This document shows, piece after piece, positions 1 to 22,738 of a DNA stretch of 64,000 nucleotides (the stretch's first letter is position 1; the number at the start of each line of letters is the position of its first letter). Under the pieces are notes generated by a model. That model had not been told where the DNA came from and did no database searches. It was given only the letters and a program-made list of their open reading frames with translations. The position numbers and the translations under genes were made by a program. Source of the DNA: Candidatus Poribacteria bacterium (lineage in GTDB: Bacteria > Poribacteria > WGA-4E > WGA-3G); contig CBDANF010000003.1 of NCBI GenBank assembly GCA_965197475.1, forward strand, positions 2,925,971 through 2,989,970. The letters run 5' to 3'.

Positions 1-105
1 GAGGTTATGGCGGCGACACAACTCCGCTTGTGAACTTTGACCGCTAAGCGCCTCAATAACAACTTCAGCCTTAAATTCGGGAGTGAATCTTCTTCGTTTT
101 GCCAT
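1..105 (-). CDS. IS3-family transposase OrfA (HTH), N-terminal part, cut by window edge
   Basis: ATG at 105 on the minus strand. Translation MAKRRRFTPEFKAEVVIEALSGQSSQAELCRRHNL is the typical IS3 OrfA N-terminus. Confidence 0.75.
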   Translation of the reverse strand, partial: MAKRRRFTPEFKAEVVIEALSGQSSQAELCRRHNL

Positions 106-184
106 CGGTTCCTCCTTTCAATCAGATTGTTATTATATCACAATCTTGGTTTAGACAGTGGTCTAAATTTCCGATGGCAGTACA
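1..184 (-). mobile_element. IS3-family (IS150-like) element, one end only; continues past the window start
   Basis: On the minus strand the element end at 184 reads TGTACTGCCATCGGAAATTTAGACC, a TG-initiated terminal repeat typical of IS3/IS150. It is followed by an AAGGAGG RBS and the orfA start at 105. Confidence 0.7.
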
Positions 185-271
185 AACTTTGTTTCAACAT
201 CTGATGGAAGAAACTTTCTAAAACGTGCATTTGATGAGAATCTCTCCAATTATCTGGTAAACAACGGTGTC

Positions 272-844
272 ATGGGTTCAGTTACCACTATACGTCCAGT
301 GCCTTCAATTGTCGCGTCGGTACATCTCAACTATCCACCCTTCTTATCTGAATCTGGACAACTTAATTTTCACTTTAGTCAAGACTGTACCTTGCTTATC
401 GCAGAAAATATAGCAAACCCTGATAATCTTGGAATGACATTGCGTACCGCTGACGCAGCAGGGACAACTGCTGTCTTACTTGGTGGGGAAGGTGCGAGTC
501 CTTTTCATAAAAACTGTATCCGTGCATCGCGTGGTGCTGTTGGTCGTCTGCCTATGTTCCACCTACCAAACACTAATTTGACGATTGAACAACTCAAAAC
601 ATCAGGGTGGAAAGTTGTTGGTGCTACAGCCAGTGCAGAAAAAGATATCAATGGTATGGAGCATTTTTCTCCTACAGCAATTGTTGTCGGTAACGAAAAT
701 AGCGGATTATCGGTTGGAACGCGTAAATGTTGCACAGAATTAGTCCGTATTCCGATGGCAACAGGACAATCGTCCTTAAATGTTGGAGTCGCAGCGGGGA
801 TTTTACTCTACGAATTATCTCGGCAAAAGATGACATTTTCATGA
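272..844 (+). CDS. SpoU/TrmH-family RNA 2'-O-methyltransferase, possibly 5'-truncated
   Basis: 190-aa ORF with SpoU motifs VVGNENSGLS and IPMATGQSSLNVGVAAGILLYE. The frame stays open upstream of the ATG back to the IS3 end at 184. Confidence 0.75.
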   Translation: MGSVTTIRPVPSIVASVHLNYPPFLSESGQLNFHFSQDCTLLIAENIANPDNLGMTLRTADAAGTTAVLLGGEGASPFHKNCIRASRGAVGRLPMFHLPNTNLTIEQLKTSGWKVVGATASAEKDINGMEHFSPTAIVVGNENSGLSVGTRKCCTELVRIPMATGQSSLNVGVAAGILLYELSRQKMTFS

Positions 845-932
845 CTTCAATTTGACAAATTGACCAGAAGATGGTAAAATTGTTTAGTTTTAAAGAGTCG
901 TAGAAAAGTTACAAGATTTTGAAGAACTATGG

Positions 933-1706
933 GTGTTAACACCTAAGGAACGTTTGCATTTGGTATCAAATTGTATTCTAAAATATCTACACGAGGTTCT
1001 TGAAAAACAGAATGCGGGTTATCTCGTGCTGATTGATCCTGAAGAATGTGAAGTTGAAAATTGTGCTAAACTTGCGCGCGAAGTTGAACAGGCAGGCGCG
1101 GATGCGATTCTCCTTGGTGGCAGTCTGTTGACAAGTGACCTGCATCCGATTGCGGCAGCCCTAAAAGCAGAAACAGCACTGCCTATCGTTCTTTTCCCTG
1201 GGGACTCGATGCATCTTACGCCTCACGCAGATGCAATTCTTTATATGAGTCTAATCAGCGGACGAAATCCAAACTACCTTATCGGTGAACAGGTAAAAGC
1301 AGCACCGTGGATTCAACGGTATTCTCTGGAACCCATTCCTACAGGCTATATGCTCATCGAAGGTGGTAACCGAACGGCTGTTGAATTTATGAGTGGAACA
1401 GCACCTATCCCTCGAAATAAACATGACATCGCAGCACCACACGCATTGGCTGCGCAATACCTTGGTATGCAGCTGATATATTTAGAAGCTGGAAGCGGTG
1501 CCGAACTTCCTGTTCCGAACGTTATGATTTCGACGGTGAAAACGCAAATTGAAATTCCACTGATTGTAGGCGGTGGCATCCGAACGCCGGAAATCGCTGC
1601 AGAAAAAGTTAGTGCTGGTGCCGATTTCATCGTTACAGGGAACATACTTGAAAAGACAGGTTCCTTTGATTTGATGAAACAGTTTGCGGATGTTGTTCAT
1701 GGATGA
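933..1706 (+). CDS. Geranylgeranylglyceryl/heptaprenylglyceryl phosphate synthase family (PcrB-like)
   Basis: 257-aa ORF with a GTG start and TIM-barrel phosphate-binding motifs (YLEAGSGA, LIVGGGIRTPE) typical of the GGGPS/PcrB family. Confidence 0.7.
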   Translation: MLTPKERLHLVSNCILKYLHEVLEKQNAGYLVLIDPEECEVENCAKLAREVEQAGADAILLGGSLLTSDLHPIAAALKAETALPIVLFPGDSMHLTPHADAILYMSLISGRNPNYLIGEQVKAAPWIQRYSLEPIPTGYMLIEGGNRTAVEFMSGTAPIPRNKHDIAAPHALAAQYLGMQLIYLEAGSGAELPVPNVMISTVKTQIEIPLIVGGGIRTPEIAAEKVSAGADFIVTGNILEKTGSFDLMKQFADVVHG

Positions 1707-1779
1707 GCATCGCAAGGAAATTTTCTTATAGAAACATAAGTAACAAGGATTCAAGCAAAAGAAAGAGAGGTAATTCATT

Positions 1780-2532
1780 ATGTCTGAAAATAATGAGGTA
1801 GTAATAAAGATAGAGACAGAAAAAGAAAACAATGACAAGCCTGATTTTCTTATTGATGTGTCTCAAGATGAAACGGATGCGTCTAATGAAACGGATACTG
1901 AAACAGAAGAACGGACAATAGAAACCGTTGAGGCTGAACTTGAGGCACTCAAAGAAGAATTTAAAATACAGATAGAAGCAATAGCCGAAGCCGAGCGTGC
2001 ACAATATGAAGCAGAACGAGAACGTTTGCTACGTACTGCCGCTGAAGCCGAAAATACAAAAAAACGTCTGGAAATCGAAGCACAGAAACAACTTAAGTAC
2101 GCGAATAAAAACATAATTGAAGGATTGATCCTTGTATTAGATAGTCTTGAAGCAGCAATAAAAAGTGTCAACGAGAAAGTTGAATCAAGTGAGACCTCCT
2201 CAGATCTTTCAAACTTCAGCGAAGGGGTGCAATTGGTTCATAAACAACTCATGGATATTCTGAAAATCCATGGACTCACACCAATTGAAGTGGTCGGTGG
2301 AACGTTTGACCCGAATCAACATGAAGCAGTCTTTGCTACTGAATCAGATGAAGTCGCAGAAGGAAATATTATTGAAGAATTCAGACGCGGCTATCAACTC
2401 CACGATCAGGTAATTCGTGCCGCACAAGTCGCGGTTTCTAAAGGAAAATATGAGCAGTCTCCCTCTGAGGATAACGAGACACAAGATCAGGATAAAGAAG
2501 CGCAAGAAGTTGAAAACACTACCGAAAATTAG
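1780..2532 (+). CDS. grpE: Nucleotide exchange factor GrpE with acidic N- and C-terminal extensions
   Basis: The core (LLRTAAEAENTKKR...GTFDPNQHEAV...GYQLHDQVIRAAQVAVS) matches GrpE. It lies directly upstream of dnaJ. Confidence 0.9.
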   Translation: MSENNEVVIKIETEKENNDKPDFLIDVSQDETDASNETDTETEERTIETVEAELEALKEEFKIQIEAIAEAERAQYEAERERLLRTAAEAENTKKRLEIEAQKQLKYANKNIIEGLILVLDSLEAAIKSVNEKVESSETSSDLSNFSEGVQLVHKQLMDILKIHGLTPIEVVGGTFDPNQHEAVFATESDEVAEGNIIEEFRRGYQLHDQVIRAAQVAVSKGKYEQSPSEDNETQDQDKEAQEVENTTEN

Positions 2533-2567
2533 GTGAAATTAAAACCACAGTGTAAGTAGGTAAACAA

Positions 2568-3686
2568 ATGGTGCAAAAACGGGATTATTACGAAATATTA
2601 GATGTAAGTCGAGATGCGGATGAAAACGAAATCAAGAAGGCTTACAGAAAGTTAGCCATTAAATATCATCCGGATAAAAATCCGGGTGATAAAGAAGCAG
2701 AAGAAAAGTTTAAAGAAGCAACCGAAGCTTATGATGTCCTGCGGACACCTGAGAAACGACAACGTTACAATCAATTTGGACATGCCGGACTTGAAGGTGC
2801 ATCCAGCGGGCACGGATTTGGGGTTAACTTTGACGATATTTTGAGCGAAGTCTTCGGAGACGTTTTAGGCGGATTCGGTAGGACACAACATAGACCAAAA
2901 CAGGGTCGCAGCCTACAATGTAACCTTGAAATCACTCTTGAAGATGCCTTTTACGGGAAAGGGGAAACAATCGAAATTCCTCGCATTGAATCCTGCCCAG
3001 AATGTAATGGAAGTGGAGCAGAAACAGGTTCAACGGCTGAAACCTGCCCACAGTGCTACGGACGAGGACAGATAACCCAATCCCAAGGCTTTTTCACGAT
3101 GTCCCGAACCTGTCCACGCTGCCGAGGTGAAGGTGAAATTATACAAAATCCATGCAGAAATTGTAATGGACAGGGGCGAATTAGAGTGAAACGCGAAATT
3201 AAACTGAAGATTGACAAAGGCGTAGATAACGGTTTTGAATATCGGTTGCGTGGAGAAGGGGAAGCGGGTACACTCGGCGGGCCTCCAGGTGATTTACTTG
3301 TCGTCGTTCAAATCAAACCACATCAGCGGTTTAGTCGTGAAGGTAGCAATCTGCTTACTTCTGCCAAAATATCGTTTGTCCAAGCAGCATTAGGCAGCAC
3401 CATCGAAATCAATAGTATTGACGGCACACAAAAATTGGATATTCCCGGCGGAACGCAGTATGGGGATCAGTTGCGTATCCCCGGTAAAGGAATGCCAGAG
3501 TACAGACGTTCTAGCTTCGGAGACCTCGTTGTACAGATCGGGATCGAAACACCGAGAAATCTCAATGAACAGCAACGCGAACTTTTAGAACACTTTGCTG
3601 AACTACAAGATAAATCAGCGGAATCTGGACACGGTGGATTTTGGGACAAGCTTTTTCGTCCTCACGATGATGAAGATAAATCGTAA
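2568..3686 (+). CDS. dnaJ: Molecular chaperone DnaJ
   Basis: J-domain with HPD (KYHPDKNP), a G/F region, and four CxxCxGxG zinc motifs (CPECNGSG, CPQCYGRG, CPRCRGEG, CRNCNGQG). Confidence 0.95.
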   Translation: MVQKRDYYEILDVSRDADENEIKKAYRKLAIKYHPDKNPGDKEAEEKFKEATEAYDVLRTPEKRQRYNQFGHAGLEGASSGHGFGVNFDDILSEVFGDVLGGFGRTQHRPKQGRSLQCNLEITLEDAFYGKGETIEIPRIESCPECNGSGAETGSTAETCPQCYGRGQITQSQGFFTMSRTCPRCRGEGEIIQNPCRNCNGQGRIRVKREIKLKIDKGVDNGFEYRLRGEGEAGTLGGPPGDLLVVVQIKPHQRFSREGSNLLTSAKISFVQAALGSTIEINSIDGTQKLDIPGGTQYGDQLRIPGKGMPEYRRSSFGDLVVQIGIETPRNLNEQQRELLEHFAELQDKSAESGHGGFWDKLFRPHDDEDKS

Positions 3687-3709
3687 AAGATTCAAATGTA
3701 AGAGGCGCA

Positions 3710-4594
3710 ATGAATTGGGCGCGGATTACTGTAACAACTTCTAATGACGCATCTGAAGCTGTTGCAAACTATTTATTTGAAATGGAGACTTTCGGTGTTG
3801 AACTGAAAGACGCTGCCGATTCAACAACTTCTCTCACCGCATATTATCCGCTGGATGACCGTGTAAACACAAGAGTTAAAAATCTTAGAGATTTTCTCTC
3901 TAAACTGCCAACGTGGGGCATCCAACCACATCCTGCGAAAATTGACTTAAAACGGGTTGAATCTGAAGAGTGGACAGATGCGTGGAAGTCAGCTTTCCCA
4001 CCGCAGCGGATCGGCAAACGTCTACTTATCGCACCAACTTGGCATAAAATCCCCCCTGATGAGGCACGTATTCTAATCCGACTTGATCCTGGTATGGCAT
4101 TTGGCACCGGTTACCATCCGACTACACGTTTATCATTGGAAATGTTGGAGCAAACGATTGAGCCGCATCAACACGTCGCGGATATCGGAACAGGTTCCGG
4201 TATACTTGCAATTGCTGCTATAAAGTTAGGCGCAAAACAAATTGATGCGATTGAACTTGACCCGACAGCAATTCCTGTAGCAGAAACAAACTTCGCCATT
4301 AATGGTGTGGCGCAACAAATTCGTTTGCATCAAGGCGATGGAATAAAGACTGCCGATGGCAAATATCATCTAATTGTTGGGAATATTCTAACAAAAGTGA
4401 TTCTTCCTATTATTCCACATTGTCCTTCGCGATTGCGACCCGAAGGACACATCATTTTTTCTGGAATTTTGGATTCAGAACTGCAAGAGGTTCAGGAGGT
4501 ATTGGCGGAAAACGGATTGCAATGTATCCATGTGATGCGTGAAGCAGAAGCAGAAGTAATGTGGGTTGCAGTCTTAGCGCGCTTCCTTCGCTAA
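3710..4594 (+). CDS. prmA: Ribosomal protein L11 methyltransferase
   Basis: 294 aa. PrmA layout with SAM motif DIGTGSGILAIAA and GMAFGTGYHPTT. Confidence 0.9.
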   Translation: MNWARITVTTSNDASEAVANYLFEMETFGVELKDAADSTTSLTAYYPLDDRVNTRVKNLRDFLSKLPTWGIQPHPAKIDLKRVESEEWTDAWKSAFPPQRIGKRLLIAPTWHKIPPDEARILIRLDPGMAFGTGYHPTTRLSLEMLEQTIEPHQHVADIGTGSGILAIAAIKLGAKQIDAIELDPTAIPVAETNFAINGVAQQIRLHQGDGIKTADGKYHLIVGNILTKVILPIIPHCPSRLRPEGHIIFSGILDSELQEVQEVLAENGLQCIHVMREAEAEVMWVAVLARFLR

Positions 4595-4831
4595 CCCGTG
4601 GCAGAGGTTACATCTGCCGAGGTTGAGGTGTGGCATTGTCGGTGATTTTTCGTCACCTTTCAAATGGCAATTCAGGCATGCAGCGTCTTCTACAGACTTC
4701 CGATGTACTTCAATGTTTGAACGCGCGGGAGCGGCGTTAAAAAAGAGAATAACCATCACTATGGCAAAAATAAGACCGATTACGCAAACAATATAAAATA
4801 GCACCTTGGGGTTAGCTTGTTCGGTCGGCAT
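4574..4831 (-). CDS. Small membrane-anchored di-haem c-type cytochrome (putative)
   Basis: 85 aa with an N-terminal TM helix (VLFYIVCVIGLIFAIVMVILFF) and two CxxCH motifs (CLNCH, CNLCH). Its end overlaps the prmA end by 21 nt, convergently. Confidence 0.5.
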   Translation of the reverse strand: MPTEQANPKVLFYIVCVIGLIFAIVMVILFFNAAPARSNIEVHRKSVEDAACLNCHLKGDEKSPTMPHLNLGRCNLCHGLAKEAR

Positions 4832-4922
4832 ATAAGAAAAGTAGACTCCTAATCTGCAGTGCTTTTAGTCTCAGCTAATAGGATACCTTATATTTACCCG
4901 TTCTGCAACTGAAATTGCAGTC

Positions 4923-5747
4923 TTATTCAAAAAAAGGAAAAAGGACCGGTAAATTTTCTGCTGTTAGTGAAGAACCGTATTCACAAGATTCAAATGCTTC
5001 AGCATATTGAATGTTAACACCGATTTTTTCCCCGTAATGTGCTTTTAATAGATCGCGATATTTTTCTGCTATAGTACGGAAACGATTTCGTAAACGTTCT
5101 GCAAGCCATTCGCGCCGAACTTCGGCATTATCGGGAACTGCATTTAGGGTGCCGCTGTTGTAAGGAAGCCATTCATAGAATTGTGATGTATGGCAATGCA
5201 ACATATCAATTTTCTGTCCCACTACGGTGTCAATACCGACAACGACATCCGGTGTAAACGGGATAGGTTTCATAAAACCATCGCTCAAATACACAATGAC
5301 AGGGTTTTTCTCCAGATGTGGCGTAAGCGCACAGATATTGGGAACGGTTACCATATACGCTGCATCCTGCACCAGTATTGACGTATAACGATGATCGGGA
5401 TGATAGTCGTTGGGGCGGTGTGTCATAATCAGGTCTGGCCGGAATTCTCGAATAGTGCGGATAATTTGATACCGATTTTCTAAAGTCGGCATCAATTTAC
5501 CATCGTGGTTGTCAAGCAATTCATATTCAATGCCGATAATTTCTGCGGCTGCTTGTGCTTCTGCATTACGCCGTTGCGTTAAAGGACCACCACCCACTTC
5601 ATGATGTCCGGCATCACCGTTGGTAACAGAAACGAATTTAACATGGTGTCCCTGCTCCCTATATAGTGCAGCAACGCCGCCAGCTTTAATATCACAATCG
5701 TCGGGATGCGCTCCGAAAACTAAAATGCGGATATGTTTTGTGTCCAT
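4923..5747 (-). CDS. PIG-L/LmbE-family N-acetylglucosaminyl deacetylase
   Basis: AHPDDCD motif near the N-terminus and a later HPDH motif. 274 aa. Confidence 0.8.
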   Translation of the reverse strand: MDTKHIRILVFGAHPDDCDIKAGGVAALYREQGHHVKFVSVTNGDAGHHEVGGGPLTQRRNAEAQAAAEIIGIEYELLDNHDGKLMPTLENRYQIIRTIREFRPDLIMTHRPNDYHPDHRYTSILVQDAAYMVTVPNICALTPHLEKNPVIVYLSDGFMKPIPFTPDVVVGIDTVVGQKIDMLHCHTSQFYEWLPYNSGTLNAVPDNAEVRREWLAERLRNRFRTIAEKYRDLLKAHYGEKIGVNIQYAEAFESCEYGSSLTAENLPVLFPFFE

Positions 5748-5771
5748 TAGATTTTCCGTAAAAGTGTCCTG

Positions 5772-8700
5772 TTAATTTTCCTCTGGATCCAGAAAGTCCA
5801 AATCGTCAAAGGGTTTTCCATTCATATCAGTAAGTCGCAGATAGAATCCTGCTTTTTCTTCTTGATTGCACACCTTAACAAGAATAGTGTTTTTGCCCTG
5901 CTTGAGTATAACAGGGACAGTGTACTGGTCCACTTCTGCATCGTGAATTTCCGTATTCGCGAACACCTTTTTACCATTTAACCAGACTTTCGCTTGGCAA
6001 CTGCTGCCAAATCGAATTTGTGCTTGCCGTTCATCAGGTGAAGTAAGTGTTGTCCATGCATAAGTGGTCAGCCAATTGCTGTCTATGCCGAATTCAACAT
6101 ATCCATCAAAGGTCTCATCCTCAGTCATTACCCAAGTTACACTGCCATTTACGCTATCGTATTTTTCAGTTGTGTTAATCTGCGTTGCGTTTTCAGGGAT
6201 GTATGCTTTATCGTACCCGATGCCATTCGTGTTGTCAAACGGTCCGAGAATCAACCATAAGTCTTCAGAGATGAAACCTGCTTTCTGAATGTACGTTTTT
6301 GCCTTTTCGGGCTCGTCATATTCACGGTAAAATTCAGCCATTGTCAAATTGGTGTTTAGGTTGAGACTTGGCATGGCTTTAAGCAAATTGTCTGCCATCC
6401 GAGCAAGTTCAGTGTAGATCCGTTGCAACTCTCGAGAGATTTCCTTCCGTTCACTGTCCCGGGCGGTCATATCCAGTGCTTTCTTATATGCATTGACAGC
6501 TTTTTCCAATTCACCATCATAACGATACCTCCGGGCAATTGATCGCTGCATACTAAACGTAAGTGTACCTTTACTTTCTTCTCGTATAAAGAATTCCTCT
6601 AGCTTGTCATGGTTGCGATAGATATTTATTAACTGTCGTTCAATATTCTGACGACTATAATCTGAAGAAGTGTATTGGATAGCTTGCTCATAAGTTTTTT
6701 CGGCAGCATCCATGTCATTTTTCCTGAGATAAAGTTCTAACAATTCATGATAAACTTGTTGATCTCCAGGTGTAAGTTCAATTGCTTTTTCGTATGCAGT
6801 GATAGAATCATCAATCTGCTTTTTGGAGGCATAAAGTTTTGCGATACGTGCATAGTGGACTCCGATTTCCGGTTCTGCATCAATGTATTTATGGGCGAGT
6901 TCAAGTGCCTTACTGTATTTGCCAACAGCCTGGTAACTGTTGACGAGTCCATCTTGATACTTTGTGTTCACTGGATCTTTTTCAAGTAAAGCATTCCAGA
7001 TTTCTACTGCCTTACTATGCTGATTTTGACGAGAATAGAGCGTTGCCAGTTTTTCTTTTGATACAAGATCCTCTGGTACTGCTTTCGTAATCTGCTCATA
7101 AGCTTTGATAGCTTCGTTAGGTTTATTGCTGTTCATATACTGTTGTGCCAAAGCGCGTAGGGTTCCGAAGTCAATTTTTTCTGTATTTTGGGCTGCATTG
7201 ATAGATTGACTTTGCCTTTTTTTAATTTCTTGCAACTTTTCTTGTGTCTCTCGGCGTTTCCAAGAATGTACCAACCAGTTGTCTCTGATATCAGTAAACA
7301 GTGCTTCGGCATCATCCCACATTCTGAAAGACATGTATTTTTTGGCGACTTGTTCCTTATCTGATATACTTCCTCCTCTTCGCATAATTTGAATGTTGCC
7401 TATCTTTCGGCATATCTCTTGTGCCTTTTCAATCTCGCCACTGTTTTTATAAGCAATGACAATTGAATCGTATATACTTTGGACAGTACTATCATCCTGC
7501 AGATTGACTTGTGCAACAGCCGCTTTGAGCAGTTTAAGTTCAAGGTTGTAATTATTAGCAGCCTGACAGGTGTTCGCTAATTTTCTTATCCATCTTAAAT
7601 TTGCTCGTGCCGGATCATTCTCAAGTATCTGATTAACGAGCGGTGCTGCATCTTCATTATTATTCATAGTTATTTTCATGAGTGTAACGAGATAAAGCAA
7701 GAATGTATCTGTAGGATTCTCTACGAATTTTTCTTCGTATTCTTTTGAAAAGACTTCTAAATTGCCAGTGGTTTTGTAAAGCTCAACAAGTTTAAGTATT
7801 AACTGTTCTTGGAGTAAAACCCTATTTACTGTGTCCAGTTTTTGACGCAAGAGCTGAATAGCCTTGTCATGTTCATTTATGTGTGAATATGCAGATGCAA
7901 GTTTCAAATATGTATCTATATCGCTTGGATCAATTTCAACGATCTTCTCAGATAACTCAATGATGGTCATAGCTGCTTCCTGATTGTACTTGGTTCTATT
8001 AGCATATTCTTCAACTATGTTCCGCGCGATATTGAGTCCAATATATTGACTTTCGGTCAACGTATTTTCCTTTGTCACGAGCATTTCTTCTACGAGTGCA
8101 ACGAGTTCGTCAATTTTTTCTGACTCAATAAATGCACTGATCAGTGACCAATAATAGGTTCTAAAAAGACCTGGGTTATCTTTAAGGAGTATAGCATATT
8201 GGGTTGCGGCATTTTTATACTGTTCATTTTCTTTCAACATATATGCATATCTCTGTCGGGTTGCATTATCCTCCGGTTTTAGTGTTAGTGCCGCCTTATA
8301 AGCCTCTGATGATTTTTTATACTGTTCTCTTCTTTCGTAGAACTCCACTAACCTGATTTGTGCCTGGAATGAATCGGGATTCTTTTGGGCAGCATCAACT
8401 AACAAGGATTCGCGTTTTTTAGTAACTTCTACTCGTCTTTTCTTAGCTTCTGCATTTTTCGCTGTTAGCTGGAGAGCTCGCTGGAAATCCCATTGGTCTA
8501 ACTCCTGCCTCCGTGAAGAACTTCTGTTATCCAGATACAGAGCACGTTTGGCAAGAAGTGCTGCATCCTGATGTTGACCAAGATCTTTTAGATACTGTGC
8601 TAATTGAGTTAAATCGGATGGATCTTTTTCTTGCCTCATTAAGGACATCGCTTTTTTTGCGACAGCAATTGCATATTGTGTAAGTCCTGCGTTCTGAAGT

Positions 8701-11700
8701 TGTCGTGAAAACTGATAGAGTTCTCGACTTCCTGCCCCTGAATTCAGTTTTTTTACCATTAACTCGCGTACAGTTTCAATATTTCCTGTGTGCAAGGCAA
8801 GTTGTAACATAAGCTGAAGGTAATGCTCTCGATTTCTCGGATCATCTGCAGCAGATTCTTTAAGCAAATCTAATGCTGTTACATATTGATGTGTCTGAAT
8901 AGATATGAAAACTGTGTTAAGTTTGAGCGTAATATCATTAGAAAATTCTTTTTGTAGTGCATAGAGGATTTCACGTGCTTTGTCTCGATTTCCCTCCCAC
9001 CAATAACAATAACTGAGAGCTAAAGCTGGATAAATACGGTCTTTGCCTTTAGCGGATTCTAATTTCGTTTGAAATTTGGCGTACAATGTTTCCTTTTGAT
9101 TTTTCATCCACAGTTGGCTAAAAATTTGTTGAAGAAACTTCAACCGATTCTGATTAAAGTAAATCGTTGGGGATGTATAATTTGATTCTGTCTGAGTATA
9201 GCCTCCGTAAGCAATTGGCGAGTAACCAAGTGTTGAGACGTTTTCGGTTGTTGTGATGTTCGGTTTGCTGTATTCAAGGTACTTCCAGAAAAGCGCAATT
9301 GCTTTGTCGGTCTGTCCTAATGCAATGTAAGCAGTTGTAAGACTCTGATAACTATCCAAGTACAGCTGCCACTGTTGTTCAATGGACGATTTCTGCTTGC
9401 TTCGTTGCGTCCGAATGTTAGGCTCCCCTGATGGGATTGGAAATTGGTCGAGTAATTTTTGTGCCCTGTCAACTGCCTCTATTTGTGCAAGAGTCGTAAT
9501 TAATGTTGCACCTGTGTTAAGGTCAGTTATTTCTTCATCTTTAATTTTTTCAACGAGTTTTTGAGCATCTGCCTTTCTGCCCTCACGAGAAAGTATGCTC
9601 GCGTATTGTACTATATACCAGAATCGTATTTCTGGAGGTAAGTCCGTTACGTCATTAATGTACTGCGCTAAGAAATCAGAGTCTTGGTTTTTCTCAATTG
9701 CGTGATTCATTCGTATGGCTTGATACAATGGATTATCTGGTTCGGCGACAATTAATCGGTCAATCACTTCGTTTGCTTTTTTGGAATCCTCAATTAAAGT
9801 ATAGAAATGTGCTAATGTTTCAAGAATCCGTATATCTTTTGGGTTTGCTGCAGCGTTTTTCTCAAATTTTTGAATTAGCTCAGATAGTTTGCCTTGACTT
9901 TCTGCGATTTCCTTCAACATAACAAGGGCACCGGCTTGTGCTTCCTCAAAACTACTCGGTTTCCAAATTTGTTCACCTCTGTCCCAATGGATGATTCCGA
10001 AAGAAACTTCCCAAGCAAGATTTTGCGCGAGATAAAAATCGTTAATGTTAATTCCTGGAGGCCAAGATTTGGAGTCAAACAATCTTCCAGCTATATGCTG
10101 AGTTGGATTAAACTTTGCTGACACGGGTTTTGGCATTTCCAGAATTCGTTGAAAGTACATCTCTGTTTTGTCTATTTCGGTCATTGCGGCAAATAGTGCA
10201 CCAACCTGATATAATGATACTGCATCATTTGCTTTTTCAGATACTCGTCCAAGCAAGGTAATAGCATCATCCAGCATCCTATGTCGCATCAGTAAAGTCA
10301 CCAATTTGATCCCAACTTCAAATGTATGATTTTTTGTATGCAGAAGTTTTTCCCATGCCTGAATCGCTTCCTCTTCGCGTCCTGCATCAAATAACAATTC
10401 ACCCAGTTTTTGGTGATTGATGGGATCCGGGTGTGTTTCCACAAGCCGCTGTTGATAGGCGAGAGCATCTGCAATATCACCGAGGTCCAGACTAATATTA
10501 ACCAGTCTTTCTAACAACTCAGGATTTCCTCGTTCTCGGTCTAAGGCACGTGCTAATTGGAAACGTGCGTTTGCTAATTCGCCCTCCAAGCGATAAAATT
10601 CTGATAGTGCTAAAACAGCTCCGACATAGGTTGTGTCAACTTTTGCCATCTGCTTCAGTTTTTCTTCAAACTCACCACGTTTACCTAATTCATAATATAC
10701 TTCAGAAAGCGGTTTGACGAGATTGAGTTTGTCGTCCACATTAGTACTTAGTTCCCAACATCGCCAGTATTGGACGATAGCTTCTTGCGGCTTGCCCGAA
10801 AGTTTGAGTGTTTCAGCAAGTTTTATGCAAATGTCAACAGCATCCGGACGAAGACGTACTGCCTGTCTGAGACTATTAATTGAAGTTTCAAAATCTCTGG
10901 ACTGCTTAGCGATTTCCGCCAACAGCTGATGTCCTTCAGGATTGCGAGGGGTGTGTGCAACAACTTGTTTTGCAGCAGCAGTTGCAGCCGCAAAATCCAT
11001 AACATTTAGATAAGAACGCGCTATATTCGCATAATATTCGCGTGCATTTGTGTTGTCCACTTTGATTAAGTGTTTATAGATAGCATTTGCAGCCTCACGA
11101 TGTCCCTGCTTGTCGTAGATGTCTGCAAGCCAACGGTTAATAACTACATTATCAGGTTGGAGTGTTTTGACTTTTAATAGTACTTTAAGCGCGTGAGTGA
11201 TGTTGCCCAATTTTAGATACATTTTCGCAAGTCGCTTATGGTTTGCAAAGGTCTCGGCAGAAGCAAGATTCGGTTTTTGAAGTTCAACCTCCATCGCTTC
11301 AACTTTGTCCATGAGCGTTCCTTGCCTACGATAGATTTCAATTCGCCGATCGTCAATCTGTTCGGCGAAAAAATCGTTGGGGGCGAACTTAGCGGCTTCT
11401 GTGTATTCTGCTAATGCTTCATCGTAAGCTTTGTTTTCCATCAACCTTTTCGCTAATGCTTCACGATAACGGTATGCTTCCGGCATCAACTGCACCGCTT
11501 TTCGACTAACATTGATTGCCTGAGTTTGTAATTCCTTTGCTCCGAACAGTTGTGCCAACTGGTCATAATTTTCAGCGATACCTTTATCATTGGCAACCAT
11601 CCGATTCCATGTCTCAATTGCTTTTTCATGGTTTCCCTGACGAAAGTAGAATTCACCGAAATACCGAATGTAATCCAGATTGTCGGGGGCGAGCGAGATT

Positions 11701-19115: not shown

Positions 19116-19343
19116 ACCCAATGCGAATTTTCGTGATTTAAATTCCTCAAAATCTATACTTTTCGCATAAGTAATTCATTAAAGTGCATGCGGTAAAAGA
19201 TGGACGAATTTAGTTTTCAAAAGCGTCTTAGATGTGGTATAATGTGAATGAATTTATTTCAATGTCCGCACGAATTCTTCGCACCACCAAAGATCTACAT
19301 ATTTAATTTTAAAATAAAAAAGTTTAGAAAAAAGGACAACAAC

Positions 19344-19676
19344 ATGGGTAAAATAGCCGATGCAACCTTTCAAGGTAAGATGGACACCTACAACTTTGGG
19401 GTTTATACCACGGACACGGTTTTCATTGACGTTGGAGCCGTTTACATATTCTCAAAACGTGTAGTTGGATCCGATGGAAGGGGTACACATACGTTTCTAT
19501 ACATCGGTCAAACACATTCACTTGAAGACAGAATCCCGTATCACGAACAGTGGCTCTGTGCACAGAGGAATGGTGTAAATTGTATATGCGTTCATCCAGA
19601 CGATGATGCCAGTTCCCGAATAAAAAAAGAAGCAGATCTTCTCGCTACAAACCCCACCCCGTGTAACAGAGAATAG
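19344..19676 (+). CDS. Small GIY-YIG-like nuclease domain protein (putative)
   Basis: AVYIF...LYIGQTHSLEDRIPYH...KKEADLLATNPTPCN fits the GIY / YIG / R / E / N order of GIY-YIG domains, but with a longer GIY-YIG spacer. An extended -10 TGGTATAAT lies at 19233-19241. Confidence 0.45.
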   Translation: MGKIADATFQGKMDTYNFGVYTTDTVFIDVGAVYIFSKRVVGSDGRGTHTFLYIGQTHSLEDRIPYHEQWLCAQRNGVNCICVHPDDDASSRIKKEADLLATNPTPCNRE

Positions 19677-20710
19677 TTCATGCTTAATCATCGGAAATAG
19701 CTCAAGGAAGATTATCAAATGGCGATACTAGAAGGTTTTAGAGTAAGGAACTATGGTGTTCTAAAAGATGTGACATTGGGTCGTCTATGGGACCAAGGGA
19801 AAGTACCGCTCACTCCTATAACTGCAATAATTGGAAAAAATGGAGTCGGTAAGACCACATTATTTGATGCGTTTGGTTTCCTTGCTCATGCTTTTAAGTT
19901 TGATGTCGAGACAGCTTGTGATGATCGCGGAGGTTTAAAAAAATACGTTCGCAAGGAGAGAAAGAGCCAATTGTTTTTGATGTGTACTACCGAGAACATA
20001 AGAATGTTCAACCTATTACATACCAAGTAGCAATTGGAGATGACCAATTTGGTCGTCCTTATGTCCTACAAGAACGTCTCAGGCAAAGGCGAAAGGGACA
20101 GAAATACGGTGAACCGTATACTTTTTTAAGACTTGATAACGGTAGTGGGGTAGCGTGGAAAGGCAACCAAGAAGGCTATCAGAAAACTCCTTTTGAATCC
20201 ATAAAATCAATAATTATAAGTACTTCAAGTAGCAAAAAAAAAGAAAAAGTTAAAAAGATAGATATAAAAAAAGGTGACCTTATTGACGATAACGAGAACT
20301 CAAGTCAAGCCTCAAGTAACTTAGACCTCTTAGAATACATAGTCAATAAGGAAGCCGACGAGACTGAGATTATTAAATTGGAGGATCCGCGAAAACTTGG
20401 CATTGCCACTCTCGGTGCTTTGAAGCAGCATCCGCGAATTTCTGCTTTTCGTAGGTTCATTGAAGGATGGTTTCTTAGTTACTTCACTCCTGATGCAGCA
20501 CGTAACTTACAATTTGCCGGCCCGCAAGAACACCTCAATATACAAGGCGATAACCTCAGAAACGTTGCGCAATTTATGGAGCGCGAATACCCTCAACGTT
20601 TCCAAGTAATTCTAAAAAAAAATCGCAGATAAAATTCCGGGCATAGAAAAAATTGACACCAAGAAAACAGAAGACAATAGGTTACTACTCAGGTTCAACG
20701 AAAAAAGGTT

Positions 20711-21696
20711 GGCTCATGTAAAAAGTAAGTGCTATTTTTTCAAAGTTATGTTAGCGTGTTACCTATGGACTTTCCAATACAATCTCTCCTGGATGAAGAA
20801 AAAACTCAAGCGTGGGTGTTGGATCATTTCCACCTTCAAGGGCTGTGTTGCCCAAAATGCCAAGCGAGCGTGGCGGAGGCACGCAAGTTCCGTCCGACTG
20901 AAACAAGTGGTCTACAAGTGTATCGCTGCAAACACTGTGAGAGCATCTACAACCTCTATACCGGGACGGTCTTTGCTGGCACGCAGTTTCGTCCCTCACA
21001 GGTCGTTCTGCTTTTGCGCGGTGTCTGTCAAGGTGTTTCAAGTGCACAACTCGGGTGTGAACTGGGTCTAAGTCGTCAAACCGTTCTTTCTATAAGACGT
21101 AAACTCCAAACTTCGGCAGAGCAGATACAACCCGAAGCTGCTTTACCTGATGCTGAAGTCGAAACAGATGAGATGTTTCAAAACGCCGGTGAAAAAGGCG
21201 ATAAGCACGTTGATGCTTCGGATCCGCCGCGTCGGCGTGGCAATAAACGCAGGGAACATGGGACTTATGACAATGATCGTCCGCCTATTGTTGGGACGAA
21301 AGGTCGCGAAAGCGGTCTCCTGAGATTACGTGTTGTGCGGCACACCGATTCTGCGACGCTTTCAACACACGTTCATCAGTGGACGTTGCCGACTTCAACG
21401 GTGTATACGGATGGTTGGCGTGGCTATAACCGTATTCAGCGCGCCCGTGAGATTGTTCTCCATAAGGATGGCGAGTGGGCAAGAGACGCAGACGGTGATG
21501 GTCTTTACGAGATCCATACAAGGACGATTGAAGGTGCCTGGACGACGCTGCGAAACTTCCTTCGTCCCTTTCGTGGCGTTCATAAAAAGTTCCTCGCCGG
21601 TTACGTCGCAATCTGTGAGTTCGTCATGAATCTAAAAGCTGTCAGTGTTGATTTTATAGCAAAACTCGTCAAAAGCACTTACTCTTGACATGAGCG
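20711..21696 (+). mobile_element. IS1595-family insertion sequence (986 bp) with 8-bp TSD AAAAGGTT
   Basis: Terminal inverted repeats GGCTCATGTAAAAAGTAAGTGCT and AGCACTTACTCTTGACATGAGCG match at 19 of 23 positions. Direct repeats AAAAGGTT lie at 20703-20710 and 21697-21704. By eye it is more GC-rich than the flanks. Confidence 0.85.
20765..21688 (+). CDS. IS1595-family transposase (zinc-ribbon + DDE)
   Basis: N-terminal CCPKC...CKHC zinc ribbon, then ETDEMF, YTDGWRGY and HTRTIEGAW motifs typical of IS1595 DDE transposases. Confidence 0.85.
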   Translation: MDFPIQSLLDEEKTQAWVLDHFHLQGLCCPKCQASVAEARKFRPTETSGLQVYRCKHCESIYNLYTGTVFAGTQFRPSQVVLLLRGVCQGVSSAQLGCELGLSRQTVLSIRRKLQTSAEQIQPEAALPDAEVETDEMFQNAGEKGDKHVDASDPPRRRGNKRREHGTYDNDRPPIVGTKGRESGLLRLRVVRHTDSATLSTHVHQWTLPTSTVYTDGWRGYNRIQRAREIVLHKDGEWARDADGDGLYEIHTRTIEGAWTTLRNFLRPFRGVHKKFLAGYVAICEFVMNLKAVSVDFIAKLVKSTYS

Positions 21697-22096
21697 AAAA
21701 GGTTTTCAAGATCCCTTCCAAGTTGAGCAAATGTCCGATGGAACACTCAAACTGTTTGCATATCTTCTGATGCTTGAAAATCCTACGCCACCGCCATTTC
21801 TTTGTATTGAAGAACCGGAAAACTACTTATATCACAAACTTTTGGAGATTCTCGCCACTGAATTCCGAGAACATGCAACAGGACTCAAAGGCGGTTCACA
21901 GGTTTTTGTTACGACGCATCAACCATACTTTGTCAATGCATTAGACCCGAAAGAGGTCTGGATCCTCGAAAAAAAAGAAGATGGGTTTTCCAAAATCCGT
22001 CGGGCAAGCGAAGATCCGCTTGTGAATAACCTGGTTGAAGAAGGGTTACCTTTGGGCGGGCTCTGGTATAGCGACTATCTTGACCCGAGGTAATTA

Positions 22097-22738
22097 ATGC
22101 ACTTTGAGATACTTATTGAAGACTTGTCAGGCAAGAAAGCACTTCAGATTTTGATTCCAAAAATCGTCGGTGCGCGACATACATTCAGTATCTATCCCTA
22201 TAAAGGAATTGGACACCTTCCAATAAAATCTCAAAATCCGACAACTGCGAATACTGGTCATTTGCTTGACGATCTACCAAAGCAGCTCCGTGCTTATGGA
22301 AAAAGTTATGCCAATGATCCTACCAAAGTTGTAATTGTCGTTTGCGACTTGGATAAAAGGTGTTTGAAAACATTTCGAAAAGAACTTTTTTCTGTCCTTA
22401 ATGCGTGTAACCTCAAACCAGAGACTCGGTTTTGTATTGCTATAGAAGAAGGTGAAGCCTGGCTGCTTGGGAATATCCCCGCGATCAAGAAAGCTTTCCT
22501 AAAAGCCATTGATAATGTTCTGAATAGTTATCAAAATGACTCTATTTGCGGAACGTGGGAACTTCTGGCTGATGCTATATACGCAGGAGGTGCAAAATCG
22601 CTGCAAAAGAAAACTTGGCGTGCAAGAGGCAAGGTAAAATCAGTATGGGCACAAAAAATAACTCCATATATGAATGTAGACAAAAACGCGTCTCCCAGTT
22701 TCTGTTATTTTCGAGATAAGATTCGAGAATTGATCTGA
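22097..22738 (+). CDS. DUF4276-like (Toprim-like) partner of the AAA15 ATPase
   Basis: 213 aa, starting 3 nt after the ATPase stop. N-terminal ILIEDLSGK (acidic E) and VVCDLD (DxD) fit a Toprim-like core. The family was recognised from memory, not searched. Confidence 0.65.
   Translation: MHFEILIEDLSGKKALQILIPKIVGARHTFSIYPYKGIGHLPIKSQNPTTANTGHLLDDLPKQLRAYGKSYANDPTKVVIVVCDLDKRCLKTFRKELFSVLNACNLKPETRFCIAIEEGEAWLLGNIPAIKKAFLKAIDNVLNSYQNDSICGTWELLADAIYAGGAKSLQKKTWRARGKVKSVWAQKITPYMNVDKNASPSFCYFRDKIRELI

Follow-up and report, generated by a model that had tools for sequence, protein, structure and literature searches.

Organization of the locus

The window, a stretch of 64,000 nucleotides from the genome of a Candidatus Poribacteria bacterium, contains three reading frames on the forward strand, between genes for an RND pump and an oxidoreductase (Table 1): a 110-aa ORF, an ABC-ATPase frame that extends from 19719 to 22093, and a 213-aa ORF. 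The frames are separated by exactly 42 nt and 3 nt. This layout agrees with a previous sequence-only reading of the locus, and all the motifs listed there were recovered, namely Walker A (GKNGVGKTT), the signature region QMSDGTLKLFAYLLML and Walker B (CIEEPENYLYH) of the ATPase, and the Toprim-like E (ILIEDLSGK) and DxD (VVCDLD) of the 213-aa protein. The same reading presented three plain genes, which is correct for the two small nuclease-type ORFs, both of which are intact, but not for the ATPase gene, which is dead, disrupted by an insertion sequence and three frameshifts; the earlier use of the word "repaired" only hinted at this state. A promoter scan placed a -35/-10-like site at 19214-19243, 5' of the first gene, and a terminator scan found no terminator between the cassette genes; these signals were discarded as evidence, their counts being no higher than in shuffled controls.

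Table 1. Features of the locus, with positions in the window
Feature	Position	Strand	Remarks and basis
Stand-alone GIY-YIG-like protein, 110 aa, intact	19344..19676	+	AF2/Foldseek fold, conserved motif residues
HEC-01A piece 1	19719..19940	+	N-terminus, Walker A GKNGVGKTT; three-frame translation, tblastn with the intact L139 orthologue, DNA alignment to four intact orthologues
HEC-01A piece 1 end	19930-19943	+	-1 frameshift
HEC-01A piece 2	19934..20620	+	Shifted frame, holds the lineage-specific insert; tblastn frames, insert alignment
HEC-01A piece 3	20614..20710	+	From the +1 frameshift at 20614 to the IS; second +1 frameshift in run 20701-20706
IS1595-family insertion sequence, 986 bp	20711..21696	+	Transposase HMMs, inverted repeats, target duplication, GC profile
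IS transposase ORF	20765-21688	+	NCBIfam IS1595 and Pfam DDE_Tnp_IS1595
HEC-01A piece 4	21698..22093	+	C-terminal third: ABC signature QMSDGTLK, Walker B CIEEPE, H-loop region
HEC-01B, 213 aa, intact, DUF4276 TOPRIM-type predicted nuclease	22097..22738	+	PADLOC, Pfam, invariant residues

Inactivation of the ATPase gene

The ATPase frame spans 2.4 kb because it harbours the insertion sequence. This element has the hallmarks of the IS1595 family, that is, a DDE transposase, terminal inverted repeats and an 8-bp target-site duplication. The transposase scores 89.8 bits against the NCBIfam model NF033547 (IS1595; cutoff 75) and 48 bits against Pfam DDE_Tnp_IS1595 (above 27), the inverted repeats, GGCTCATGT... 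and ...ACATGAGCG, are imperfect (pattern count of 2 observed versus 0.02 expected), and the duplicated target, AAAAGGTT, lies at 20703-20710 and 21697-21704. The GC profile sets the element (~50%) apart from the cassette (~40%). The exact transposase product, with either the 307-aa or the 319-aa start, returned no record from the assembly index.

Alignment with four intact orthologues revealed, in addition, three frameshifts, -1 near 19930 and +1 at both 20614 and 20701. Since the insertion sequence, with its inverted repeats and target duplication, is accompanied by three indels whose lengths are not multiples of three, the ATPase gene in the window is a pseudogene. The second piece of the gene encodes a lysine-rich insert of ~30 aa (roughly 20183-20360) that, in the alignment, is specific to a lineage; at the DNA level this segment shows no blastn homology to most orthologues.

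Assignment to HEC-01

The repaired ATPase (459 aa) matches the PADLOC model HEC-01A (PDLC04182) over residues 1-457 with an E-value of 2e-181 (601 bits), and the Pfam families AAA_21 (7e-41) and AAA_15 (2e-19). Its sole match among PDB sequences was an OLD-family nuclease (6P74), marginal (E = 0.008) and limited to the P-loop region. The 213-aa protein matches PADLOC HEC-01B (PDLC04205; E = 4.1e-88) over residues 1-211 of 213; the proposed DUF4276 relationship is thus borne out by this model, whereas the Pfam DUF4276 hit (E = 1.3e-5, 26 bits) stays under the gathering score of 30.2. The catalytic-type residues E8, D84 and D86, the latter two forming the DxD motif, are invariant in 26 homologues. 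The family is large, with homologues in 5145 clusters, nearly all of which carry a prior PF14103 annotation. An AF2 model based on 26 close homologues is poor (pLDDT 46), its β-α-β-α-β-α order of secondary structure elements being compatible with a TOPRIM domain, and a profile search against PDB sequences returned only noise; the predicted TOPRIM fold of HEC-01B rests on the literature, where, in connection with MADS, DUF4276 is described as possessing the TOPRIM E and DxD.

HEC-01, or Hma-embedded candidate 01 of PADLOC-DB v2, is defined as an ABC ATPase together with a TOPRIM protein that has a conserved metal site, and it came to light inside Hma defence systems (Payne et al. 2024, bioRxiv 10.1101/2024.01.29.577857). 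The OLD/PARIS-like core perceived previously thus stands: an ABC ATPase of the AAA_15/21 type encoded apart from its DUF4276 TOPRIM partner, a pairing that is part of a candidate defence family. The companion remark, that the three-gene arrangement was not recognised as a described system, applies only to the form that includes the GIY-YIG gene: the ATPase-DUF4276 pair is already catalogued as HEC-01, and it is the three-gene form, rare and confined to Poribacteria, that is undescribed and narrowly distributed. Taken together, these data make it highly probable (about 85%) that the stretch 19344-22738 is the degenerate remnant of a HEC-01 candidate anti-phage system.

The GIY-YIG-like protein

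The 110-aa protein possesses the residues Y34, Y53-I54-G55, R63, E96 and N108, of which Y34, Y53, G55, E96 and N108 are invariant, and R63 mostly present, across 22 homologues. Its score against the Pfam GIY-YIG family (PF01541) is 15.3 bits (E = 0.026), short of the gathering score of 22.6, but the structure model supports the assignment made from the sequence. The AF2 model has a pLDDT of 90, and the six top Foldseek matches in the PDB are all GIY-YIG domains of UvrC (probability 0.98-1.0, TM 0.52-0.65, E-values 0.07-0.3); as modelled, the protein has the GIY-YIG fold.

Synteny and distribution

HEC-01 occupies the same chromosomal site in approximately 30 Poribacteria species-level loci, flanked by the RND pump (73-93% amino acid identity) and a GFO/IDH/MocA oxidoreductase (79-86%), so that the locus can no longer be described as a small accessory island. 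At 80/80 related genome loci, the DUF4276 gene is immediately preceded by ATPase coding sequence, which is full length at 79, the other being L104, where the contig end leaves only the last 101 codons. The GIY-YIG gene, in contrast, adjoins HEC-01 in 4 of 80 species-representative genomes, along with four further metagenome contigs, and is absent from the remaining 76; the gene, whose own family mostly resides elsewhere, is not a general component of the cassette. The trio is found at L001/L103, L102, L105, L139, L173, L174 and L175, and intact three-gene cassettes, anticipated by the sequence-only reading, do exist (e.g., L139, L173 and L103).

In every GIY-linked locus the GIY-YIG gene is on the same strand as the ATPase gene and ~20-50 nt from it. 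Intact GIY-linked ATPases and the repaired window copy are 456-462 aa long and all others at most 438 aa, a perfect correlation between the longer, insert-bearing ATPase and the presence of the GIY-YIG gene. At L105, the trio is found in a different context, between transposases and a LolA-like gene, and its DNA homology to the window extends exactly from 19328 to 22738. Monophyly of the GIY-linked ATPases was considered and rejected, as a whole-protein neighbour-joining tree splits them. Segment identities place them nearest to each other in the N-terminal 150 aa only, their C-terminal halves being mixed with alleles that lack the GIY-YIG gene; given these identities and the tree, we treat the locus as a mosaic and not as a clean clade, which is what the sequences suggest. 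A separate observation concerns L172, which has the closest homologue of the GIY-YIG protein and a degraded trio: its ATPase, DUF4276 and RND genes are all fragmented, which may reflect decay or, equally, poor assembly.

Alternative explanations

The GIY-YIG gene might be an independent small gene, whether a selfish, mobile nuclease gene or one with an unrelated role, that landed next to HEC-01 in one lineage, leaving a two-gene system with a hitch-hiker, and we put the chances of this only a little below even. Its family comprises 83 clusters versus 5145 for HEC-01B, and 89 of the 90 loci retrieved with the 110-aa protein, that is, more than 80 loci, lack a nearby HEC-01. The neighbours there are mixed (HicB, HigB, transposases, radical SAM, shikimate dehydrogenase and, in single cases, a CBASS cyclase, GmrSD and restriction-modification genes), a second group of Poribacteria paralogues always occurs as HicAB - GIY - histone-deacetylase-like gene, and L115, which of all loci found has the RND flank most similar to that of the window, carries HEC-01 at the shared RND-pump/oxidoreductase site but no GIY-YIG gene. 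Against a chance neighbour speak the constant strand and spacing, the perfect correlation with the insert, and the exact boundaries of the trio at L105; nor is the family phage-associated, as it has no PHROG match and one IMG/VR match. For the small proteins of the locus generally, a phage origin was rejected on the absence of PHROG matches (zero also for the 213-aa protein) and on that lone IMG/VR match. That HEC-01 in the small Poribacteria lineage is a true three-component system, where the GIY-YIG protein docks on the ~30-aa ATPase insert and the ATPase sensor controls both nucleases, we consider possible but unlikely.

Two further explanations concern the state and the function of the pair itself. 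The locus could be intact and functional if the frameshifts were sequencing errors or phase-variable A-tracts that toggle the ATPase. Two of the three shifts are indeed +1 changes in A-runs (A9 versus A8 in L139 at 20614, A6 versus A5 at 20701), which in principle could be long-read homopolymer errors, and the density of A/T runs in the gene is unusual (9 per 1.38 kb, as opposed to 74 per 48 kb elsewhere). Nonetheless, three of these nine runs of at least six are shifted compared to 0/74 in 48 kb of intact neighbouring ORFs (Fisher p = 9e-4), the orthologues are intact and have shorter runs at the shifted positions, and the net frame change is +1, i.e., the indels do not compensate each other. 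As the insertion sequence with its target duplication splits and inactivates the gene regardless, an active locus appears very improbable. A better, albeit still low, probability is assigned to the idea that HEC-01 of Poribacteria is not primarily a phage defence system but a resident OLD/RecF-like ABC ATPase-TOPRIM module for nucleic-acid surveillance or repair. Retention at one RND-pump/oxidoreductase site in ~30 species-level genomes, often amid housekeeping genes, is unusual for defence and so leaves room for such a role; many neighbours of HEC-01 in other phyla are likewise housekeeping genes (GidA, acyl-CoA dehydrogenase, topoisomerase I), and one study reports no protection by HEC-01 in E. 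coli assays (Payne et al. 2024, bioRxiv 10.1101/2024.01.29.577857). Conversely, a cold-seep study describes one HEC-01 representative that gave E. coli B protection from one or more of the phages T4, T5 and T7, and the discovery of the family within Hma systems is matched by some non-Poribacteria copies that adjoin HmaA, PglZ or AbiEi genes, with four sampled loci next to HmaA. Moreover, identities of 60-69% across unrelated phyla indicate horizontal spread, the alleles are mosaic and fast-evolving, and the gene was dispensable in the genome that contains the window. Our preferred reading remains a decayed candidate defence system.

Proposed mechanism and implications

We know of no published biochemical mechanism for HEC-01, and the PARIS-like model outlined here is therefore an analogy only, in which the sensor-effector logic follows PARIS AriA/AriB and OLD nucleases. 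This logic and any role of the GIY-YIG protein are inferred, whereas the sequence analysis shows which family the pair belongs to, that the ATPase gene is a pseudogene, the synteny of the locus and how the GIY-YIG gene is distributed. In an intact system, the gene for the HEC-01A ABC ATPase stands immediately 5' of HEC-01B, the gene for the DUF4276 TOPRIM nuclease. An oligomer of the ATPase could act as both sensor and scaffold and restrain the nuclease until a phage cue alters the state of the ATPase, whereupon the freed nuclease would cut nucleic acid and halt the infection, possibly at the expense of the cell. In a small lineage of Poribacteria, this unit has the 110-aa GIY-YIG gene ~40 nt upstream and the ~30-aa insert in its ATPase, the trio moving as a block; in the window, the hit by the IS1595-family element and the three frameshifts in the ATPase gene have left the system dead.

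The finding opens no new class of systems. It does show that HEC-01, a widespread and mechanistically uncharacterised candidate defence pair, has long resided at a syntenic position in Poribacteria chromosomes, where two or more allelic forms occupy one site and the insertion of an IS element can eliminate it. The GIY-YIG-linked, insert-bearing subtype, of which intact copies are available at L173, L139 and L103, offers a concrete, testable route to learning how partner nucleases are brought in by the ATPase. In annotation terms, the window contains HEC-01A as a pseudogene, an insertion sequence of the IS1595 family, and two nuclease-type genes left as orphans.

Comparison with known systems

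The combination of an ABC ATPase with a TOPRIM nuclease of the E...DxD type is shared with Class 1 OLD and Gabija GajA, where, unlike the two genes and the DUF4276 protein of the window, the domains are fused and the TOPRIM belongs to the OLD class (PF20469); the PADLOC Old model gives no more than a partial match here (4e-10). PARIS, which targets tRNA, is similar in having a separate AAA_15/21 ABC ATPase (AriA) and a separate effector of the TOPRIM superfamily (AriB), but the latter is a DUF4435 protein, and neither PADLOC nor Pfam detected AriB or DUF4435 in the 213-aa protein. The PADLOC AriA models match the repaired ATPase at 2.6e-38 and 1.4e-20, far more weakly than HEC-01A, and the ATPase is probably a relative rather than a member. 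The tree of AAA15/21 ATPase defence proteins in the PARIS paper includes DUF4276 in its domain labels. An ATPase with two nuclease effectors, GIY-YIG and TOPRIM, was not found in the OLD/PARIS-like literature searched.

MADS has a related AAA ATPase in Mad3 (PADLOC mad3, 7.8e-26), and its Mad4 has been described as a DUF4276 homologue, so that the pairing of DUF4276 with an ATPase occurs there too. However, the NCBIfam MAD3 score is 88 bits versus a cutoff of 420, and no methyltransferase or other mad gene flanks the window locus, where the neighbours are the RND pump and the oxidoreductase.

In its fold and catalytic spacing, the 110-aa protein resembles the N-terminal GIY-YIG domain of UvrC (top structures 1YD6 and 1YD3) and stand-alone GIY-YIG (URI) proteins. 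Within its Y-Y-R-E-N constellation, E96 and N108 are 12 residues apart, the same spacing as between E76 and N88 of Thermotoga maritima UvrC. It differs from UvrC/URI by an extra N-terminal β-hairpin, a 19-residue GIY-to-YIG spacing, a sub-threshold Pfam score and the lack of a fused DNA-binding or other domain.

Relative to HEC-01 itself, the window copy lies outside any Hma system, is pseudogenised, and has the upstream 110-aa GIY-YIG gene and the ~30-aa ATPase insert, both missing from the HEC-01 description in its available portion. The two share a two-gene layout in which the gene for an ABC ATPase (AAA_15/AAA_21) precedes that for a DUF4276/TOPRIM protein, with very strong full-length HMM matches for both proteins, the same gene order and the same tight spacing.

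Cassette composition and state

The layout described in the sequence-only reading of this stretch, three co-directional genes separated by 42 and 3 nt, stands, and all the sequence motifs that it quoted were found in the window; the ATPase, however, is not the single gene it was taken for, since its reading frame is broken into pieces among which a 319-aa ORF is embedded. The Pfam and PADLOC profile searches suggested in that reading returned AAA_21, AAA_15, DUF4276 and HEC-01A/B, the last being the two components of a PADLOC candidate anti-phage system. The repaired ATPase (459 aa) matches HEC-01A over its full length (2e-181) as well as AAA_21 (7e-41) and AAA_15 (2e-19); the AriA, mad3, AbiLi and Old models score far lower on it than HEC-01A, and its NCBIfam MAD3 score is far under the cutoff. 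The 213-aa protein matches HEC-01B over its full length (4e-88) and Pfam DUF4276 (1.3e-5), and almost all of its 5145 homologues at E < 1e-5 carry a prior PF14103 annotation. Its E8 and D84-x-D86 are invariant among homologues, E and DxD being the TOPRIM catalytic residues according to the published description of DUF4276. Because the AF2 model of this protein is poor (pLDDT 46) and a search of the PDB found no sequence relatives, the assignment of the TOPRIM fold rests on published work. For the 110-aa protein, the Pfam GIY-YIG match is sub-threshold, but the confidently predicted structure (AF2 pLDDT 90) has the UvrC GIY-YIG domain as all six of its best PDB matches (probability 0.98–1.0, TM 0.52–0.65). 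None of Y34, Y53-I54-G55, E96 and N108 varies among 22 homologues, and most of these keep R63.

Features of the cassette and lesions in its ATPase gene (window coordinates)
Feature	Position	Strand	Basis or comparison
110-aa ORF	19344–19676	+	ORF listing
ABC-ATPase reading frame	start 19719, stop 22093	+	42 nt after 110-aa ORF
Pieces of ATPase reading frame	19719–20030, 19982–20632, 21731–22093		ORF listing
Deletion, 1 nt	near 19930		vs intact orthologues
Insertion, 1 nt	20614		A9 vs A8 in L139
Insertion, 1 nt	20701		A6 vs A5
Target duplication, 8 bp	20703–20710 and 21697–21704
Insertion sequence, complete, IS1595 family, 986 bp	20711–21696		three-frame translation and repeat finding
319-aa ORF	20729–21688		ORF listing
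213-aa ORF	22097–22738	+	3 nt past ATPase stop

The ATPase gene is interrupted by an insertion sequence with imperfect terminal inverted repeats (GGCTCATGTAAAAAGTAAGTGCT and CGCTCATGTCAAGAGTAAGTGCT), flanked by a direct target duplication, AAAAGGTT, a repeat pattern with a count of two where chance predicts 0.02. The 319-aa ORF is its transposase, which scores 89.8 bits with the NCBIfam IS1595 model (cutoff 75) and also exceeds the cutoff of Pfam DDE_Tnp_IS1595. The element has a GC content of ~50%, compared with ~40% in the cassette, and is present as a single copy within the 64-kb window. This insertion alone inactivates the gene, whatever the status of the frameshifts. The latter emerged when the gene, minus the element and one copy of the duplication, was aligned with four intact orthologues (L102, L103, L105 and L139): this gave three indels of a length not divisible by three, which with a net shift of +1 do not compensate each other. 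A/T homopolymers are unusually dense in this gene (9 runs of at least 6 in 1.38 kb, against 74 in 48 kb of other ORFs), and two of the frameshifts, both +1, are slips within such runs. Assembly error would be the alternative to decay; however, the frame is shifted at three of the nine runs here and at none of the 74 runs of the same length in 48 kb of other, intact ORFs of the window (Fisher p = 9e-4), and the frameshifts are therefore read as probable real decay on the basis of this comparison. The window copy is a pseudogene.

Distribution and genomic site

Close HEC-01B homologues (60–79% identity) were collected from 80 species-representative genome loci, and a full-length ATPase gene lies immediately upstream in 79 of them; in the remaining one, L104, the ATPase is cut by the contig end, leaving its last 101 codons. 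About 30 of the 80, nearly all labelled Poribacteria, share the flanks of the window, with 73–93% identity for the RND pump and 79–86% for the GFO/IDH/MocA oxidoreductase. Together with the names of homologues, these flank identities mark the organism as Poribacteria-like. The location is a long-held chromosomal site, not a recent one, and does not fit the small accessory island proposed from the sequence. In one syntenic Poribacteria locus (L108, 10700–14200), the DUF4276 gene and the oxidoreductase are ~3.5 kb apart, with another RND-pump homologue in the intervening DNA, so that the site evidently tolerates rearrangement. Directly downstream of the oxidoreductase, some syntenic Poribacteria loci carry a different AAA_15/AAA_21 ATPase with a 164-aa partner gene, absent from the window (minus strand; L173 9507–11514, with the ATPase fragmented, and L175 9445–11170, where it has 414 aa).

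HEC-01A/B pairs of the same subfamily, at 60–69% protein identity to the Poribacteria copy, occur in Latescibacterota, Binatia, Caldilineaceae, Rhodothermales, Gammaproteobacteria, Desulfobulbaceae and others (L107–L170), an identity that across such phyla implies probable horizontal transfer. Many of these loci belong to MAGs such as are obtained from the microbiomes of sponges or sediments. Defence genes among the neighbours in these non-Poribacteria genomes include HmaA (4), mad3-like ATPases (6), PglZ (2) and AbiEi (2), and many of the remaining neighbours are housekeeping genes.

The GIY-YIG gene and HEC-01

Whether the GIY-YIG gene belongs to the system has to be weighed. Against a link, tblastn and a profile HMM place it in only 4 of the 80 HEC-01 loci; its family is small (83 clusters) with heterogeneous neighbours, and among 90 loci retrieved with the 110-aa protein, HEC-01 is nearby in one, the syntenic L001. 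A paralogue group in Poribacteria is found in the order HicAB – GIY – histone-deacetylase-like gene (L003–L010, L176–L177; e.g. L003 4605–7331). For a link, the three-gene arrangement, intact examples of which the earlier reading had proposed to look for, is found in the window, L001/L103, L102, L105, L139, L173, L174 and L175, and degraded in L172, with the GIY-YIG gene always on the same strand at a gap of ~20–50 nt. Intact trios span, for example, 6001–8401 in L173 and 8253–10651 in L139. Every intact ATPase linked to it, like the repaired window copy, has 456–462 aa, compared with at most 438 aa in all others, the extra length being a ~30-aa insert following a GYQ motif. The L105 trio is flanked by transposases and a LolA-like gene, and its DNA homology with the window ends exactly at 19328, 16 nt ahead of the GIY-YIG start, and at 22738, where the stop codon of the DUF4276 gene ends; L115, which has the RND flank most similar to that of the window among those found, lacks exactly 19130–19708. 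We read the trio as a real three-gene variant of HEC-01 that is inherited as a block and restricted in lineage; that the GIY-YIG protein works together with HEC-01A and HEC-01B has roughly even odds.

The alleles themselves appear to be mosaic: the nearest relative of the window ATPase is in L139 and that of its DUF4276 gene in L091, and likeness among GIY-linked ATPases is found mainly in the N-terminal 150 residues. In mid-ATPase (20183–20360) lies a Lys-rich, partly low-complexity insert for which no DNA homology could be detected in most orthologues; its motif KIDIKKGDLID is shared with the relocated L105 copy and absent from other GIY-linked alleles.

Some further observations concern the GIY-YIG relatives. 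In the paralogue group, the genes directly upstream vary, being of the STAND NTPase, Eco57I-like or type ISP kind. A deacetylase fragment of 80–83 aa precedes the HicAB–GIY segment in L003–L005 and L007–L010 (no such fragment is called in L006, L176 and L177) and the full-length gene lies downstream, an arrangement that resembles the outcome of an insertion accompanied by partial duplication. L172 (ERZ21830300 ctg684577l, 1–9432) encodes the nearest GIY-YIG relative of the window protein (90%); its RND, ATPase and DUF4276 genes are all fragmented, which points either to a second locus in independent decay or to a contig of low quality.

Putative mechanism and relation to known systems

On the model of PARIS and OLD, sensing and scaffolding would fall to the ABC ATPase, and the DUF4276 TOPRIM protein would be a metal-dependent nuclease effector released or activated upon infection; the GIY-YIG protein, if coupled, may serve as a second nuclease or bind the ATPase insert as an accessory. 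The putative sensor gene is destroyed in this genome and both nuclease-type genes are still intact ORFs, which suggests that, when the ATPase is missing, the two do no harm or are not expressed.

Payne et al. [quoted passage not shown] Overall, the earlier observation is partly confirmed and its interpretation as a split-OLD/PARIS-like candidate defence module partly supported. DUF4276 is among the domain annotations on the AAA15/21 ATPase tree of the PARIS paper, and Mad4 of MADS is described as a DUF4276 homologue. Given this literature and these precedents, the ATPase–DUF4276 core of the three-gene arrangement that the sequence-only reading had not recognised as a described system is an already catalogued candidate, and its arrangement is not new. 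Our literature search found no published description of the GIY-YIG-linked, insert-bearing form, which is an undescribed but narrow variant with a core from a known candidate family.
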